Shown: in pieces, positions 23,736 through 64,000 of the stretch | How the letters are laid out: every line of letters starts with the position of its first letter | Numbering within the stretch: position 1 is the first letter of the stretch | From: Escherichia coli | Lineage (GTDB): Bacteria > Pseudomonadota > Gammaproteobacteria > Enterobacterales > Enterobacteriaceae | DNA: 64,000 bases | Assembly (NCBI RefSeq): GCF_003334815.1 | Contig: NZ_QOWO01000006.1 | Direction: 5' to 3' (one strand) | Position numbers and translations under genes: made by a program | The notes under the pieces: model-generated | Told to the model about the DNA's origin: nothing | What the model saw: only the letters and a program-made list of their open reading frames with translations | The model's database searches: none

Positions 23736-24962
23736 ATGGGAATTAACGAAATCATCATGTACATCATGATGTTCTTTATGCTGATAGCTGCCGTAGACAG
23801 GATCCTGTCGCAGTTCGGCGGTTCTGCTCGTTTCCTCGGTAAGTTCGGTAAAAGTATCGAAGGATCAGGCGGTCAGTTCGAAGAAGGCTTTATGGCAATG
23901 GGCGCACTGGGCCTGGCGATGGTCGGTATGACCGCGCTGGCACCGGTACTGGCTCACGTTCTCGGGCCGGTAATTATTCCGGTTTACGAAATGCTCGGCG
24001 CTAACCCATCGATGTTCGCCGGAACACTGCTGGCGTGCGATATGGGCGGCTTCTTCCTCGCCAAAGAGCTGGCGGGCGGCGACGTAGCCGCGTGGCTATA
24101 CTCTGGGTTAATTCTCGGGTCGATGATGGGGCCAACGATTGTGTTTTCCATTCCGGTGGCGCTCGGCATTATCGAACCTTCTGACCGTCGTTATCTGGCG
24201 CTCGGCGTGCTGGCGGGCATTGTGACCATTCCGATTGGTTGTATCGCTGGTGGTCTGGTTGCTATGTACTCCGGTGTGCAGATCAACGGCCAGCCGGTGG
24301 AATTCACTTTCGCCCTGATCCTGATGAACATGATCCCGGTGATCATTGTTGCGATTCTGGTGGCGCTGGGGCTGAAATTCATCCCGGAAAAAATGATCAA
24401 CGGCTTCCAGATCTTCGCCAAATTCCTCGTTGCATTGATCACCCTCGGTCTTGCCGCTGCGGTAGTGAAATTCCTGCTTGGCTGGGAACTGATCCCCGGT
24501 CTGGATCCTATCTTTATGGCCCCTGGCGATAAACCCGGTGAGGTGATGCGCGCCATTGAAGTTATCGGTTCTATCTCCTGCGTTCTGTTAGGGGCGTATC
24601 CGATGGTGCTGCTGCTGACTCGCTGGTTTGAAAAACCGCTGATGAGCGTCGGTAAAGTACTGAATATGAACAACATCGCGGCAGCCGGCATGGTGGCAAC
24701 GCTTGCCAACAACATCCCGATGTTCGGCATGATGAAGCAGATGGATACCCGCGGCAAAGTCATCAACTGCGCCTTCGCCGTTTCCGCTGCTTTCGCCCTG
24801 GGCGACCACTTAGGCTTCGCCGCTGCCAACATGAACGCCATGATCTTCCCGATGATTGTCGGCAAGTTGATCGGCGGCGTAACGGCGATTGGCGTGGCGA
24901 TGATGCTGGTGCCAAAAGAAGACGCGACCGCGACTAAAACCGAAGCGGAGGCACAATCGTGA
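23736..24962 (+). CDS. eutH: EutH ethanolamine permease
   Basis: Polytopic membrane protein; operon position. Confidence 0.93.
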   Translation: MGINEIIMYIMMFFMLIAAVDRILSQFGGSARFLGKFGKSIEGSGGQFEEGFMAMGALGLAMVGMTALAPVLAHVLGPVIIPVYEMLGANPSMFAGTLLACDMGGFFLAKELAGGDVAAWLYSGLILGSMMGPTIVFSIPVALGIIEPSDRRYLALGVLAGIVTIPIGCIAGGLVAMYSGVQINGQPVEFTFALILMNMIPVIIVAILVALGLKFIPEKMINGFQIFAKFLVALITLGLAAAVVKFLLGWELIPGLDPIFMAPGDKPGEVMRAIEVIGSISCVLLGAYPMVLLLTRWFEKPLMSVGKVLNMNNIAAAGMVATLANNIPMFGMMKQMDTRGKVINCAFAVSAAFALGDHLGFAAANMNAMIFPMIVGKLIGGVTAIGVAMMLVPKEDATATKTEAEAQS

Positions 24963-26362
24963 ACACTCGCCAGCTATTGAGCGTCGGTATCGATATCGGC
25001 ACCACCACCACCCAGGTGATTTTCTCCCGGCTGGAGCTGGTTAACCGTGCGGCGGTGTCGCAGGTGCCGCGCTACGAATTCATTAAACGCGAAATTAGCT
25101 GGCAAAGTCCGGTGTTCTTTACCCCTGTCGATAAACAGGGCGGTTTAAAAGAAGCGGAACTGAAAACCTTAATACTCGAGCAATATCATGCTGCGGGTAT
25201 TGAGCCGGAAAGCGTTGATTCTGGTGCCATCATCATCACCGGTGAAAGCGCGAAAACCCGCAATGCTCGCCCGGCGGTGATGGCGCTCTCTCAGTCGCTG
25301 GGCGATTTTGTCGTTGCCAGCGCCGGGCCGCACCTCGAATCCGTGATCGCCGGTCACGGAGCCGGGGCACAAACCCTTTCTGAACAACGGCTGTGTCGGG
25401 TACTGAATATCGACATCGGCGGTGGCACCGCGAACTACGCCCTGTTCGATGCCGGAAAAATCAGCGGCACTGCCTGCCTCAACGTCGGTGGTCGCCTGCT
25501 GGAAACCGACAGCCACGGGCGCGTGGTTTACGCTCATAAACCGGGGCAGATGATTGTGGATGAGTGCTTCGGTGCAGGCACCGACGCCCGTTCGCTGACC
25601 GGCGCGCAGCTGGTGCAGGTGACCCGGCGGATGGCAGAACTGATTGTCGAAGTGATTGACGGAACGCTCTCACCGCTCGCGCAGGCATTGATGCAAACCG
25701 GTTTGCTGCCCGCAGGTGTTACGCCCGAAATCATTACGCTTTCTGGCGGCGTGGGCGAATGTTATCGCCACCAGCCCGCCGACCCGTTCTGTTTTGCCGA
25801 TATTGGCCCGCTGCTGGCAACTGCGCTGCATGACCATCCGCGCCTGCGTGAGATGAACGTACAGTTTCCGGCGCAAACCGTGCGCGCCACGGTGATTGGC
25901 GCGGGCGCGCATACCCTTTCGCTCTCTGGCAGCACAATCTGGCTTGAGGGCGTACAACTGCCGCTGCGCAATTTGCCGGTGGCGATCCCGATTGATGAAA
26001 CGGATCTGGTGGGGGCCTGGCAACAGGCGCTGATTCAGCTGGATCTTGATCCCAAAACTGACGCGTACGTGCTGGCGCTTCCCGCCTCGCTGCCTGTGCG
26101 TTACGCCGCGGTACTGACGGTCATCAACGCGTTGGTCGATTTCGTCGCGCGTTTTCCGAATCCGCATCCCCTGCTGGTGGTGGCCGGGCAGGACTTTGGT
26201 AAAGCTCTGGGCATGTTGTTGCGCCCACAGCTACAACAACTCCCGTTGGCAGTCATTGACGAAGTGATTGTCCGCGCGGGGGACTATATCGACATTGGTA
26301 CGCCTCTTTTTGGCGGATCGGTTGTGCCGGTGACGGTGAAATCACTCGCATTTCCTTCCTGA
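24959..26362 (+). CDS. eutA: EutA ethanolamine ammonia-lyase reactivase (GTG start)
   Basis: MNTRQLLSVGIDIGTTTTQVIFSRL. Confidence 0.93.
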   Translation: MNTRQLLSVGIDIGTTTTQVIFSRLELVNRAAVSQVPRYEFIKREISWQSPVFFTPVDKQGGLKEAELKTLILEQYHAAGIEPESVDSGAIIITGESAKTRNARPAVMALSQSLGDFVVASAGPHLESVIAGHGAGAQTLSEQRLCRVLNIDIGGGTANYALFDAGKISGTACLNVGGRLLETDSHGRVVYAHKPGQMIVDECFGAGTDARSLTGAQLVQVTRRMAELIVEVIDGTLSPLAQALMQTGLLPAGVTPEIITLSGGVGECYRHQPADPFCFADIGPLLATALHDHPRLREMNVQFPAQTVRATVIGAGAHTLSLSGSTIWLEGVQLPLRNLPVAIPIDETDLVGAWQQALIQLDLDPKTDAYVLALPASLPVRYAAVLTVINALVDFVARFPNPHPLLVVAGQDFGKALGMLLRPQLQQLPLAVIDEVIVRAGDYIDIGTPLFGGSVVPVTVKSLAFPS

Positions 26363-26373
26363 GGGAACGACTT

Positions 26374-27735
26374 ATGAAACTAAAGACCACATTGTTCGGC
26401 AATGTATATCAGTTTAAGGATGTAAAAGAGGTGCTGGCTAAAGCCAACGAACTGCGTTCGGGGGATGTGCTGGCGGGCGTCGCAGCGGCAAGCTCACAGG
26501 AGCGCGTGGCGGCAAAGCAGGTGTTGTCGGAAATGACCGTAGCGGACATCCGCAATAATCCGGTGATTGCCTATGAAGATGACTGCGTGACGCGGCTGAT
26601 TCAGGACGATGTTAACGAAACGGCCTACAACCAGATTAAAAACTGGAGCATCAGCGAACTGCGTGAGTATGTGCTGAGCGATGAAACCAGCGTGGACGAC
26701 ATTGCCTTTACCCGCAAAGGGCTGACCTCGGAAGTGGTCGCGGCGGTAGCGAAGATTTGCTCCAACGCGGACCTGATCTACGGCGCGAAGAAAATGCCGG
26801 TAATCAAAAAGGCCAATACCACCATCGGTATTCCGGGCACCTTTAGCGCCCGTTTGCAGCCAAATGACACCCGTGACGACGTGCAAAGTATCGCCGCGCA
26901 AATCTACGAAGGGCTTTCCTTCGGGGTGGGCGATGCGGTGATCGGCGTTAACCCGGTGACTGACGACGTGGAAAACTTAAGCCGCGTGTTGGATACCATC
27001 TATGGCGTGATCGACAAATTCAACATCCCAACTCAGGGCTGTGTACTGGCGCACGTCACCACCCAGATCGAAGCGATCCGTCGTGGCGCACCGGGCGGGC
27101 TGATTTTCCAGAGTATCTGTGGCAGCGAAAAAGGGCTGAAAGAGTTTGGCGTGGAGCTGGCGATGCTCGACGAAGCGCGCGCAGTGGGCGCGGAGTTCAA
27201 CCGTATCGCCGGGGAAAACTGCCTCTACTTCGAAACCGGACAAGGCTCTGCGCTATCCGCTGGCGCTAACTTCGGCGCAGACCAGGTAACGATGGAAGCA
27301 CGTAACTACGGGCTGGCGCGTCATTACGATCCGTTTATCGTCAACACCGTGGTCGGCTTTATTGGGCCGGAGTATCTCTACAACGACCGCCAGATTATCC
27401 GTGCTGGCTTAGAAGATCACTTTATGGGCAAGCTGAGCGGCATCTCTATGGGCTGTGACTGCTGTTATACCAACCACGCTGACGCTGACCAGAACCTCAA
27501 CGAAAACCTGATGATCCTGCTCGCCACCGCAGGCTGCAACTACATCATGGGGATGCCGCTGGGTGATGACATCATGCTCAACTACCAGACCACCGCATTC
27601 CACGATACCGCCACTGTGCGTCAGTTACTCAACCTGCGCCCGTCACCGGAGTTTGAACGCTGGCTGGAAAGCATGGGCATTATGGCAAACGGTCGCCTGA
27701 CCAAACGGGCGGGCGATCCGTCACTGTTCTTCTGA
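26374..27735 (+). CDS. eutB: EutB ethanolamine ammonia-lyase large subunit
   Basis: MKLKTTLFGNVYQFKDVKEVLAKANELRSGD; begins 12 bp after the eutA stop. Confidence 0.96.
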   Translation: MKLKTTLFGNVYQFKDVKEVLAKANELRSGDVLAGVAAASSQERVAAKQVLSEMTVADIRNNPVIAYEDDCVTRLIQDDVNETAYNQIKNWSISELREYVLSDETSVDDIAFTRKGLTSEVVAAVAKICSNADLIYGAKKMPVIKKANTTIGIPGTFSARLQPNDTRDDVQSIAAQIYEGLSFGVGDAVIGVNPVTDDVENLSRVLDTIYGVIDKFNIPTQGCVLAHVTTQIEAIRRGAPGGLIFQSICGSEKGLKEFGVELAMLDEARAVGAEFNRIAGENCLYFETGQGSALSAGANFGADQVTMEARNYGLARHYDPFIVNTVVGFIGPEYLYNDRQIIRAGLEDHFMGKLSGISMGCDCCYTNHADADQNLNENLMILLATAGCNYIMGMPLGDDIMLNYQTTAFHDTATVRQLLNLRPSPEFERWLESMGIMANGRLTKRAGDPSLFF

Positions 27736-27755
27736 TGACGCGGAGATAACATATC

Positions 27756-28643
27756 ATGGATCAAAAACAGATTGAAGAAATTGTACGCAGCGTGATGGCG
27801 TCAATGGGACAAGCGGCCCCCGCGCCGTCAGAAGCAAAGTGCGCCACCACCAACTGTGCGGCACCGGTGACCTCGGAAAGCTGTGCGCTGGATTTAGGTT
27901 CCGCTGAAGCAAAAGCGTGGATTGGTGTTGAAAATCCGCATCGCGCAGACGTATTAACAGAACTGCGCCGCAGCACCGTGGCCCGCGTTTGTACCGGTCG
28001 TGCCGGTCCGCGTCCACGTACGCAGGCGCTGCTGCGTTTCCTGGCCGATCACTCTCGTTCGAAAGATACCGTACTGAAAGAAGTGCCGGAAGAGTGGGTG
28101 AAAGCGCAGGGCTTGCTGGAAGTACGCTCTGAAATTAGCGACAAAAATCTCTACCTGACTCGCCCGGATATGGGCCGCCGCCTGTGTGCAGAAGCTGTTG
28201 AAGCGCTGAAAGCGCAGTGTGTTGCCAATCCGGACGTACAGGTCGTTATTTCTGATGGCCTGTCAACTGATGCGATCACCGTGAACTACGAAGAGATCCT
28301 GCCACCGCTGATGGCGGGCCTGAAACAGGCCGGGCTGAAAGTCGGTACACCATTCTTTGTTCGTTATGGTCGCGTGAAGATTGAAGATCAGATCGGTGAG
28401 ATCCTCGGCGCGAAAGTAGTGATCCTGCTGGTGGGCGAACGTCCGGGGTTGGGTCAGTCAGAAAGCCTCTCCTGCTACGCCGTTTACTCGCCGCGTATGG
28501 CGACCACCGTTGAGGCCGATCGCACCTGTATCTCTAACATTCACCAGGGCGGCACGCCGCCGGTTGAAGCCGCAGCCGTCATTGTGGATTTGGCGAAACG
28601 TATGCTGGAGCAGAAAGCATCCGGCATCAACATGACCCGATAA
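27756..28643 (+). CDS. eutC: EutC ethanolamine ammonia-lyase small subunit
   Basis: Sequence and operon position. Confidence 0.95.
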
Positions 28644-62575: not shown

Positions 62576-63460
62576 ATGGAACGCGTATACAGAACAGATC
62601 TTAAGTTGCTCCGTTATTTTCTTGCCGTAGCGGAAGAGTTGCATTTTGGCCGCGCAGCAGCGCGTTTAAATATGTCTCAGCCTCCGCTCAGCATTCATAT
62701 TAAAGAGCTGGAAAATCAACTCGGCACGCAGCTTTTTATTCGCCATTCGCGCAGCGTCGTACTGACACACGCGGGCAAAATCTTGATGGAAGAATCGCGT
62801 CGATTGCTGGTGAATGCTAATAATGTATTGGCTCGGATTGAACAAATAGGTCGGGGAGAAGCAGGGCGGATTGAACTCGGCGTAGTGGGAACGGCAATGT
62901 GGGGACGGATGCGCCCGGTTATGCGGCGATTCCTCAGGGAAAATCCTAACGTTGACGTTCTTTTTCGCGAAAAGATGCCCGCGATGCAAATGGCCTTGCT
63001 GGAACGCCGCGAACTTGATGCCGGGATCTGGCGAATGGCGACAGAACCACCGACTGGTTTTACCAGCTTACGGTTGCATGAATCGGCGTTTCTGGTGGCG
63101 ATGCCTGAAGAGCATCATCTCTCATCATTTTCCACCGTCCCGCTGGAAGCGCTACGTGACGAGTATTTTGTTACAATGCCGCCCGTTTACACTGACTGGG
63201 ATTTTTTGCAGCGAGTTTGCCAGCAGGTGGGATTTTCACCGGTTGTTATTCGCGAAGTTAATGAACCGCAAACGGTACTCGCTATGGTCAGTATGGGCAT
63301 TGGTATCACATTGATAGCGGACAGCTACGCACAAATGAACTGGCCAGGTGTCATTTTCCGTCCGCTCAAACAGCGCATCCCTGCAGATTTATATATTGTT
63401 TATGAAACACAGCAGGTGACGCCCGCGATGGTTAAGCTGTTGGCTGCATTGACACAGTAG
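62576..63460 (+). CDS. xapR: LysR-family activator of xapAB (294 aa)
   Basis: Track ORF trimmed to the ATG at 62576 (MERVYRTDLKLLRYFLAVAEELHFGRAA). Confidence 0.93.
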   Translation: MERVYRTDLKLLRYFLAVAEELHFGRAAARLNMSQPPLSIHIKELENQLGTQLFIRHSRSVVLTHAGKILMEESRRLLVNANNVLARIEQIGRGEAGRIELGVVGTAMWGRMRPVMRRFLRENPNVDVLFREKMPAMQMALLERRELDAGIWRMATEPPTGFTSLRLHESAFLVAMPEEHHLSSFSTVPLEALRDEYFVTMPPVYTDWDFLQRVCQQVGFSPVVIREVNEPQTVLAMVSMGIGITLIADSYAQMNWPGVIFRPLKQRIPADLYIVYETQQVTPAMVKLLAALTQ

Positions 63461-63537
63461 GTGAGGAGACAGGAATTGCCGGAAATAGTAGTCTGCTAAG
63501 TGAAGCGCATCAGGCAATTTCGCAAATCGCAGATAGC

Positions 63538-63564
63538 AAAAAAGCGCCTTTAGGGCGCTTTTTT
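63538..63564. terminator. Bidirectional terminator downstream of xapR (copy A); an identical copy B lies at 63694-63720 next to tRNA-Lys
   Basis: AAAAAA-GCGCC-ttta-GGGCGC-TTTTTT. Confidence 0.65.
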
Positions 63565-63724
63565 ACATTGGTGGGTCGTGCAGGATGACTCGCTTCGCTC
63601 GCCCTTCGGGCCGTCGCCGCGAGCGGCTCCGTTGTTTCGCTGCGCTCAACTCAAACCTGCTGCAGGTTCGAATCTTTGAGTATCGCAGATAGTAAAAAAG
63701 CGCCTTTAGGGCGCTTTTTTACAT

Positions 63725-63800
63725 TGGTGGGTCGTGCAGGATTCGAACCTGCGACCAATTGATTAAAAGTCAACTGCTCTACCAACTGAGCTAACGACCC
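63725..63800 (-). tRNA. lysV: tRNA-Lys (anticodon UUU), 76 nt
   Basis: Reverse complement gives GGGTCGTTAGCTCAGTTGGTAGAGCAGTTGACTTTTAATCAATTGGTCGCAGGTTCGAATCCTGCACGACCCACCA. Confidence 0.95.
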
Positions 63801-63803
63801 GAG

Positions 63804-63879
63804 TGGTGGGTGATGACGGGATCGAACCGCCGACCCCCTCCTTGTAAGGGAGGTGCTCTCCCAGCTGAGCTAATCACCC
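63804..63879 (-). tRNA. valY: tRNA-Val (anticodon UAC), 76 nt
   Basis: Reverse complement gives GGGTGATTAGCTCAGCTGGGAGAGCACCTCCCTTACAAGGAGGGGGTCGGCGGTTCGATCCCGTCATCACCCACCA. Confidence 0.95.
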
Positions 63880-63935
63880 ACTTCGGTACTTCACATTTTT
63901 ACAAGAAATTTAGCTGGCGAGAAAGTGGTGGGTGA

Positions 63936-64000
63936 TGACGGGATCGAACCGCCGACCCCCTCCTTGTAAGGGAGGTGCTCTCCCAGCTGAGCTAATCACC
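63936..64000 (-). tRNA. valX: tRNA-Val (anticodon UAC), 5' end truncated by the window edge
   Basis: Same sequence as the preceding tRNA-Val up to the window end. Confidence 0.9.

Follow-up and report, generated by a model that had tools for sequence, protein, structure and literature searches.

The spacer between lysV and xapR is a lysV-linked member of the tRNA-linked repeats (TLRs), the RNA family RtT of Rfam (RF00391); it is an ordinary member, already described and annotated. It was studied within a 64,000-nucleotide stretch of Escherichia coli DNA (the window). We put the probability at about 0.9 that the spacer is the TLR rlV, arranged as a tandem array of 1.39 copies with a period of 156 bp that starts within lysV. 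Each period is made up of the 18-nt 3′ end of tRNA-Lys, a trailer of 43 nt that contains an intrinsic terminator, and a structured core of 95 nt. A preliminary description of this DNA, which had noticed a duplicated tRNA end, considered the scar of an integrase-mediated insertion or excision and, as an alternative, a tandem duplication. For the DNA itself the latter is nearly right: the repeat is a 1.39-unit tandem array with its start in the tRNA gene.

Anatomy of the lysV trailer

The tRNA-Lys(UUU) gene lysV lies on the minus strand at 63725-63800 (ARAGORN; 79.2 bits with the Rfam tRNA model) and corresponds to K-12 lysV, b2404. It is the final gene of the valU-valX-valY-lysV operon, and the repeat unit begins with its last 18 nt. 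The neighbouring tRNA-Val(UAC) genes are on the same strand: by ARAGORN and operon context, valY occupies 63804-63879 and valX occupies 63926-64000, where it is truncated by the end of the window. On the other side, the xapR ORF (62561-63460, plus strand, with its stop codon at 63460) is convergent with the tRNA operon.

The 61-bp direct repeat that had been reported at 63526-63586 and 63682-63742 was confirmed. Its copies are identical at 60 of 61 positions and have a start-to-start spacing of 156, and the single C/T difference is C63537 versus T63693. Folding and sequence also bore out that each copy holds a terminator hairpin together with the last 18 nt of tRNA-Lys. The proximal copy (copy B, 63682-63742) comprises the real 18-nt tRNA-Lys 3′ end and the 43-nt trailer with the first terminator, T1; it does run into lysV, the overlap at 63725-63742 being the last 18 nt of the tRNA gene as delimited by ARAGORN and Rfam. 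The distal copy (copy A, 63526-63586) comprises a pseudo-3′ end and a trailer with the second terminator, T2. This pseudo-3′ end (AUCCUGCACGACCCACCA, 63569-63586, minus strand) matches the last 18 nt of tRNA-Lys at 63725-63742 in 18 of 18 positions and forms the 3′ end of the TLR. With up to three mismatches allowed, these are the two places in the 64-kb window where the 18-mer TGGTGGGTCGTGCAGGAT is found, and there is no third copy (chance expectation 0.04). Further towards xapR, a strain-variable xap segment of 4.4 kb begins 3 bp outside copy A.

Between the copies lies the core (63587-63681, minus strand), a 95-bp segment that is indeed GC-rich, with 62% G+C compared with 53% for the window. 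Folds and covariation delimit two conserved hairpin domains on the tRNA strand, at ∼63640-63688 and ∼63583-63630. The motif in the spacer that had been called T-arm-like, at 63662-63674 on the plus strand (GCAGGTTCGAATC), matches the lysV T-arm (63740-63752) exactly over 13 nt in inverted orientation. A T-arm-derived palindrome at 63651-63674 (minus strand) forms the first hairpin of the core. Read on the tRNA strand, it consists of GAUUCGAACCUGC, the antisense of the tRNA-Lys T-arm, followed by A and by GCAGGUUUGA, which equals the sense 5′ strand of the T-stem and the beginning of the T-loop.

Membership of the RtT family

The full RtT covariance model (positions 1-130) matches 63569-63694 on the minus strand with 47.3 bits, which exceeds the gathering score of 45 by a small margin of ∼2 bits (E value 1.7e-8 to 4.7e-6). 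Elsewhere, other Lys-type copies score 46.7-60.6 bits and Tyr-type copies 133-137 bits. The match starts at 63694, which is 31 nt past the lysV 3′ end at 63725 and on the same strand, and RefSeq carries the label ‘RtT sRNA’ at the homologous position in other E. coli genomes. The outer closing helix of the Rfam consensus, an auxiliary rather than a defining criterion for TLR membership, is degenerate in the window copy, where four of the six pairs are formed. Of 39 orthologous units, 9 have all six pairs; these come from Erwinia, Pantoea, Klebsiella sp., Mixta and Enterobacter sp. The lysV unit has the position after a tRNA gene, the 18-nt identity, the covariance-model score and the entry in the K-12 catalogue by which the family is recognised.

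[quoted passage not shown] 2021, PMC8144298). The supplement of that study lists ‘rIV’ (rlV) as a 96-bp element at 2519426-25[19]521 in the old MG1655 numbering, alongside TLRs at the lysT, tyrT, serW, serX, arg, proK and rrnA/B/D loci (PMC8144298). The current K-12 record places the end of lysV at 2521328 and the start of xapR at 2521593. The difference presumably reflects an offset of ∼2 kb between versions of the MG1655 record, which places rlV in the lysV-xapR spacer.

Two terminators around the core

Both terminators were recognised as inverted repeats and by MFE folding. T1 (63692-63722, minus strand) comes directly after lysV and has a 13-bp stem, a 5-nt loop and a U6 tail. T2 (63536-63566, minus strand) is the second copy of the hairpin and lies 76 nt downstream of the xapR stop codon. 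A scan with a consensus terminator pattern detected neither hairpin, probably because the A and T tracts lengthen the stem, while MFE folding showed both. Since T1 has an A tract on the opposite side, it could terminate in the reverse direction too, and T2 is probably the terminator of the convergent xapR as well. For the valU operon and xapR, which converge here, the duplicated terminator would be a double stop that may work in both directions. No promoter-like site was found in 63300-64000.

Related repeats behind other genes

The same pseudo-3′ end recurs behind the other K-12 tRNA-Lys genes. The spacers after lysT, lysW, lysY and lysZ end in ...CAACGGCCCG[A/T]AGGGCGAG...GAGTCATCCTGCACGACCCACCA, and lysQ is followed by T1, core, 18-mer and T2, in a stretch that is identical to the lysV end at 267 of 268 positions. 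Thus, all six K-12 tRNA-Lys genes precede a TLR with the same 18-nt pseudo-end. The identity between the terminal lysQ and lysV units spans the tRNA, T1, the core and the pseudo-3′ end and extends into T2, although the distal repeat copy of lysQ is 7 nt shorter than that of lysV. The internal TLRs of the lysT operon share with the lysV unit the 3′ half of the core and the 18-nt end. However, they are only ∼100 nt long, contain neither terminators nor the T-arm palindrome, and have kept a Lys-specific outer helix. The lysT-operon TLRs bear the names rtT, rtW, rtY, rtZ and rtQ (PMC8144298).

A likeness is also found behind tRNA-Tyr genes. The tyrT/tyrV repeats (rtT RNA, rttR) are tandem units placed directly after the tRNA gene on the same strand, like the lysV unit, and each terminates with the final 18-19 nt of the tRNA that precedes it. 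They contain a homologous GC-rich core (...CGRCCCGAAGGGCGA...), their 5′ part resembles an antisense T-arm, and an arginine-rich pseudo-ORF runs in the same frame. The K-12 tyrT locus has four RtT units, each of which ends in the tRNA-Tyr 3′ end AATCCTTCCCCCACCACCA. Egan and Landy are said to have reported a ‘178-bp repeat’ of tyrT/tyrV in 1978, and the tyrT units have a period of 178 bp compared with 156 bp for the lysV unit, along with higher model scores (133-137 versus 47 bits). The tyrT units also have an intact outer helix and no intrinsic terminator, whereas the lysV copy has a terminator and a degenerate outer helix. Judged from the K-12 sequences, this helix of the Rfam model appears to switch with tRNA identity: it reads GGGGAAGGAU/AUCCUUCCCC in Tyr-type units and CGUGAAGGAU/AUCCUGCACG in the internal Lys-type units.

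A match in layout is found behind rRNA genes. The TLRs rrA, rrB and rrF lie between the dual terminators T1 and T2 of rrnA, rrnB and rrnD; in rrnB, which has the order 5S-T1-TLR-T2 and two copies of an 18-bp repeat at a distance of 150 bp, the TLR is transcribed by read-through of T1 and processed (PMC8144298). The lysV unit has the same arrangement of gene, T1, TLR and T2, with its repeat at 156 bp instead of ∼150 bp, but it stands behind a tRNA gene whereas the upstream gene of rrA, rrB and rrF is that of 5S rRNA. The RrA, RrB and RrF RNAs bind Hfq and CsrA via GGA motifs in hairpin loops, and the 19 tRNA-linked TLRs scored <0.01 in a prediction of CsrA binders (PMC8144298).

Distribution across Enterobacterales

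The junction GTCATCCTGCACGACCCACCA revealed Lys-type TLRs at at least 120 loci in Enterobacterales, among them loci in Citrobacter, Enterobacter, Klebsiella, Atlantibacter, Kosakonia, Erwinia, Mixta, Pectobacterium, Dickeya, Edwardsiella and Photorhabdus; in Photorhabdus the pseudo-ends form runs of 8-9. These loci, at least 120, contain at least 186 Lys pseudo-ends, which fall into an internal and a terminal class. Among the matches listed, internal pseudo-ends are located 98-101 nt past the tRNA and have no terminator, and terminal ones are located 154-157 nt past the tRNA and are followed by a second terminator. Terminal units stand behind a Val-Lys pair, as in the window, in 20 of the matches listed and in a lysT-type arrangement in 9. 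Since this layout is conserved in many genera, the order lysV-T1-core-T2 is older than E. coli.

Covariation in the terminator and core hairpins

An alignment of 39 distinct terminal units, with a mean column identity of 85%, was used to examine the RNA structure. In the terminator and core hairpins, 98.5% of the cells are paired, compared with 35-49% when the partners are slid, although the structure was derived from the same sequences as the pair counts, which favours it in this control. Compensatory changes were seen at 8 pairs, compared with 0-3 in the controls, though the common ancestry of the 39 units can inflate the shuffle control. Examples are GC/AU exchanges in the terminator, where two pairs of the T1 stem are affected, UA/CG, CG/UA and AU/GC exchanges in one core hairpin, and a CG/UA exchange in another. 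G.U pairs are compatible with the tRNA strand only. The T-arm palindrome is kept in 27-37 of the 39 units. A long-range GCAG/CUGC pairing proposed by RNAalifold is invariant across the units, and pairs were counted with the local hairpin. The compensatory changes in the hairpins suggest that a structured read-through RNA is likely.

Copy-number variation in E. coli

Among E. coli strains, the xapR-lysV site contains 0, 1 (as in the window) or 2 units, in exact 156-bp register. The xapR flank adjoins lysV in ∼3,945 of 5,426 complete E. coli genomes, and 1,911 of the 5,426 have at least one unit at this site. The exact two-unit allele was found in at least 40 genomes, and in 2 of 60 in an evenly spaced sample; the frequencies of the 0-unit and 2-unit alleles are estimates obtained by subtraction and from evenly spaced samples, as only the 1-unit and core-only queries discriminate between alleles. 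Anywhere in the genome, the 95-bp core occurs in 3,243 genomes (60%), with 5,148 copies in all and 1-5 per genome, and it is wholly missing from the remaining 40%. The lysQ site is variable too: JNE25-003 has two units there. Deletion would be the simplest explanation for the 0-unit alleles.

The structure of these alleles suggests, as the most economical cause, that units are gained and lost by unequal homologous recombination or by replication slippage between the 61-bp repeats, and gene conversion between the lysV and lysQ units may keep them identical. An integrase would not be needed for either gain or loss of a unit.

In the E. coli genomes aligned to look for an island between the repeat copies, whole 156-bp units were found and no island. 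Evenly spaced samples of 40 and of 60 genomes, together with the best 40 matches, showed no cargo other than TLR sequence between the copies. One suspected larger insert, in which the xapR-side repeat was not joined to lysV, proved to be a plain two-unit allele. The preliminary description had proposed that the same two-copy arrangement in all Escherichia genomes, with no strain carrying cargo, would point to an old, fixed duplication. The expected uniformity does not hold, as the unit is polymorphic, but what varies is the number of copies and not the presence of an island.

Neutral duplication and other explanations

The array could also be a functionless by-product of slippage or unequal crossing-over, kept uniform solely through gene conversion with the tRNA genes. 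We consider this rather improbable, although several observations agree with it. Copy number varies from 0 to 2, 40% of E. coli genomes are without any unit, and the near-identity of the lysV and lysQ units is what conversion predicts. TLRs are without known function in the literature, the sole reported phenotype, an early one, having been retracted, and a strain deleted for all 22 TLRs has been constructed (PMC8144298). Given this strain and the absence of the unit from 40% of genomes, any function must be dispensable. However, the 85% mean column identity is maintained across Erwinia, Mixta, Klebsiella and Citrobacter, three core helices contain compensatory changes, and the distance to the tRNA is conserved, a combination that would be unexpected for unconstrained intergenic DNA. 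Furthermore, conversion with a tRNA gene accounts for the 18-nt end only and not for the core.

It is very improbable that the unit is a decayed additional tRNA-Lys gene whose 5′ two-thirds were replaced, leaving the T-arm and the acceptor end. The appropriate pieces are present: the sense 5′ strand of the T-stem with the start of the T-loop (GCAGGUUYGR) and, ∼75 nt later, the remaining T-loop, the T-stem and the acceptor 3′ strand. However, neither ARAGORN nor the Rfam tRNA model finds a tRNA in the unit, and the same design exists behind 5S rRNA (PMC8144298). The homology of the core to the Tyr-type cores points to a shared family module instead of decay specific to one locus.

The attL/attR scar, in which insertion or excision by a tyrosine integrase at the lysV 3′ end would have duplicated the tRNA end, was not supported and has next to no likelihood. 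A resemblance to tRNA att sites exists, since the direct repeat includes the 3′ end of a tRNA gene, but it is superficial. It is also true that some strains have the unit and others lack it, and that the variable xap segment starts so close to copy A. However, what lies between the copies is the 95-bp core of a known RNA family, without a conserved ORF, and the 0-, 1- and 2-unit alleles are whole-unit multiples only. The same pseudo-3′ end stands behind all six tRNA-Lys genes, with analogues behind tRNA-Tyr and 5S rRNA, and the arrangement is kept across genera at a distance of 154-157 nt. Unlike att sites, the unit is accompanied by neither integrase nor cargo; it is a conserved structured module behind every tRNA-Lys gene.

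Comparison of the 95-bp segment with mobile-element att regions gave no meaningful match to a phage or a true plasmid. Among phages there were two partial matches only, of 41-42 nt at 88% identity, in unannotated records of 1.6-2 kb, and nearly all plasmid matches were in non-mobilizable records of 0.28-4.9 Mb that are most likely pieces of chromosome. Also against a scar, the window holds no third 18-mer, and the edges of the variable xap segment showed no att-like repeats of 8 nt or longer. In a mobilome-sequencing preprint, raised coverage at tyrT/rttR was ascribed to RNA/DNA heteroduplexes and not to circles. The genes eutH-eutA-eutB-eutC are contiguous in the window, so that the K-12 prophage CPZ-55 and its integrase are absent. 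A duplicated tRNA 3′ end beside a terminator in Enterobacterales is best taken as the signature of a TLR/RtT element, and as an integration scar only if cargo is present.

A functional small protein, a Tpr-like, ‘protamine-like’ peptide from the 28-codon arginine-rich ORF running from 63649 to 63563 on the minus strand, has a practically negligible probability: the ORF is present with a TTG start and has an RRxRPEGR stretch in common with K-12 Tpr of the tyrT repeat, but that similarity stems from the conserved RNA core CGGCCCGAAGGGCGAG, and the ORF was rejected as a gene because start, frame and stops are unconserved in the 39 units, with TTG in 5 of 39 (TCG, CCG, TCT, TGA and others in the rest), segment lengths of 77-83 nt that break the reading frames, and in-frame stops in several units.

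A probable read-through RNA from the lysV unit

For the TLR rlV, the anatomy, the covariation and the precedent of rrnB suggest that the core would be transcribed solely by RNA polymerase that passes T1 and that transcription would halt at T2. Besides the rrnB precedent, the absence of a promoter-like site and the G.U pairs specific to the tRNA strand indirectly support co-transcription with lysV. With the pseudo-3′ end ...ACGACCCACCA, the spacer RNA would share its 3′ terminus with the tRNA. Because this end is tRNA-like, the ordinary enzymes of tRNA 3′ maturation could release a hairpin-rich RNA of ∼125-155 nt. Its amount would track transcription of the operon and the leakiness of T1; as T1 looks strong, read-through is perhaps rare.

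A more speculative reading, which we regard as a long shot, is that the terminal Lys-type TLR is a selectively maintained RNA, a mimic of the tRNA 3′ half made by read-through of T1, with its dose set by the number of units. In this architecture the cognate T-arm would be split in its loop by an insert of ∼75 nt with two hairpins and would be followed by an authentic acceptor-strand-CCA tail. Such a mimic might be a decoy or sensor for factors of tRNA 3′ processing or of the CCA end, or a sponge like 3′ETS-leuZ. The latter, as far as it is summarised in the TLR study, is a sponge sRNA that arises by processing of the glyW-cysT-leuZ tRNA transcript (Lalaouna et al. 2015, via PMC8144298). On that account it is a functional RNA released by RNase from the 3′ external spacer of a tRNA operon, a type of role that a TLR RNA could have. 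It differs in being of unrelated sequence, in having no duplication of a tRNA 3′ end, in not forming a repeat family and in lying before the operon terminator.

The analysis also has modest by-products: the 0/1/2-unit polymorphism at lysV and lysQ with the core missing from 40% of E. coli genomes, and the tRNA-T1-core-T2 layout with compensatory changes across genera. With its natural alleles of 0, 1 and 2 copies, the lysV/lysQ unit should lend itself well to tests of TLR function.

Strain variation around lysV

The tandem tRNA-Val genes upstream of lysV (63804-64000 in the window) differ in number among strains, as seen also at loci L003, from a strain without a tRNA-linked repeat (TLR) unit, and L006. 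K-12-like genomes have three tRNA-Val genes in front of lysV, whereas 2011EL-1370-2 has two and O157 Xuzhou21 has one; this variation is an unequal-recombination polymorphism of the same kind as that of the TLR units. The valY-lysV spacer (63801-63803) has 3 nt in the window and 4 nt in all the strains aligned with it, K-12 MG1655 included. The missing nucleotide is the sole gap in a 1.65-kb alignment of the window with K-12, in which the two are otherwise 99.94% identical. The window is K-12-like, but it is not MG1655. Based on ORF sizes and order only, eutH, eutA, eutB and eutC are uninterrupted at 23736-28643, and the CPZ-55 prophage, which interrupts the eut operon of K-12 MG1655, is therefore absent from the window.

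On the other side of the repeat, a 4.4-kb segment (59125-63522, 47% G+C) carries yfeN, xapA, xapB, a small DUF1427 gene and xapR. In E. coli TW10722 and O157 Xuzhou21 its place is taken by 404 bp with a FlxA-like gene. The right breakpoint lies 3 bp beyond repeat copy A, and the two boundaries share no direct or inverted repeat of at least 8 nt. The xapR flank does not adjoin lysV in ∼27% of the complete genomes.

Lys-type repeats at other loci

Lys-type TLRs appear to be much more expanded in Photorhabdus species than in E. coli, with long arrays of 5-9 Lys-type pseudo-3' ends spaced at 174-179 bp (loci L011, L046, L047 and L087). These arrays appear to be tRNA-Lys genes alternating with internal-type TLRs, and some of the tRNA-Lys genes have changed 5' ends, e.g. 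GATAGATCGTTAGC. For the internal TLRs of the K-12 lysT operon (L008), Rfam RtT matches were found at 1062-1230, 1351-1517, 1655-1821 and 1877-2044 of the locus. They begin within the preceding tRNA-Lys gene, at position 8, and are 167-169 nt long, compared with 130 positions in the model; the annotated extents overlap tRNA genes and should not be read as RNA boundaries.

The 95-bp core was found at full length, 96.8% identical, in NZ_CP098226.1 (50,485 bp; match H176). No other plasmid-sized record contained the full-length core; the remaining matches of the plasmid search lay in records of 0.28-4.9 Mb.

An arginine-rich ORF in the repeat unit

A 28-codon arginine-rich ORF on the minus strand (63563-63649; MSAAKQRSRSRRRPEGRAKRVILHDPPM) has the motif RRxRPEGR in common with K-12 Tpr, the annotated protein of the tyrT repeat. 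This Tpr-like ORF is not conserved in other genera, which casts doubt on the status of tpr itself as a true gene, as opposed to a side effect of the conserved RNA core.

Other Rfam families in the window

Two further matches exceeded the Rfam thresholds: naRNA4 (RF02564; 23574-23655, plus strand, 71.8 bits) and ES036 (RF02751; 46442-46484, minus strand, 40.9 bits). Both families are based on REP-type repeats.
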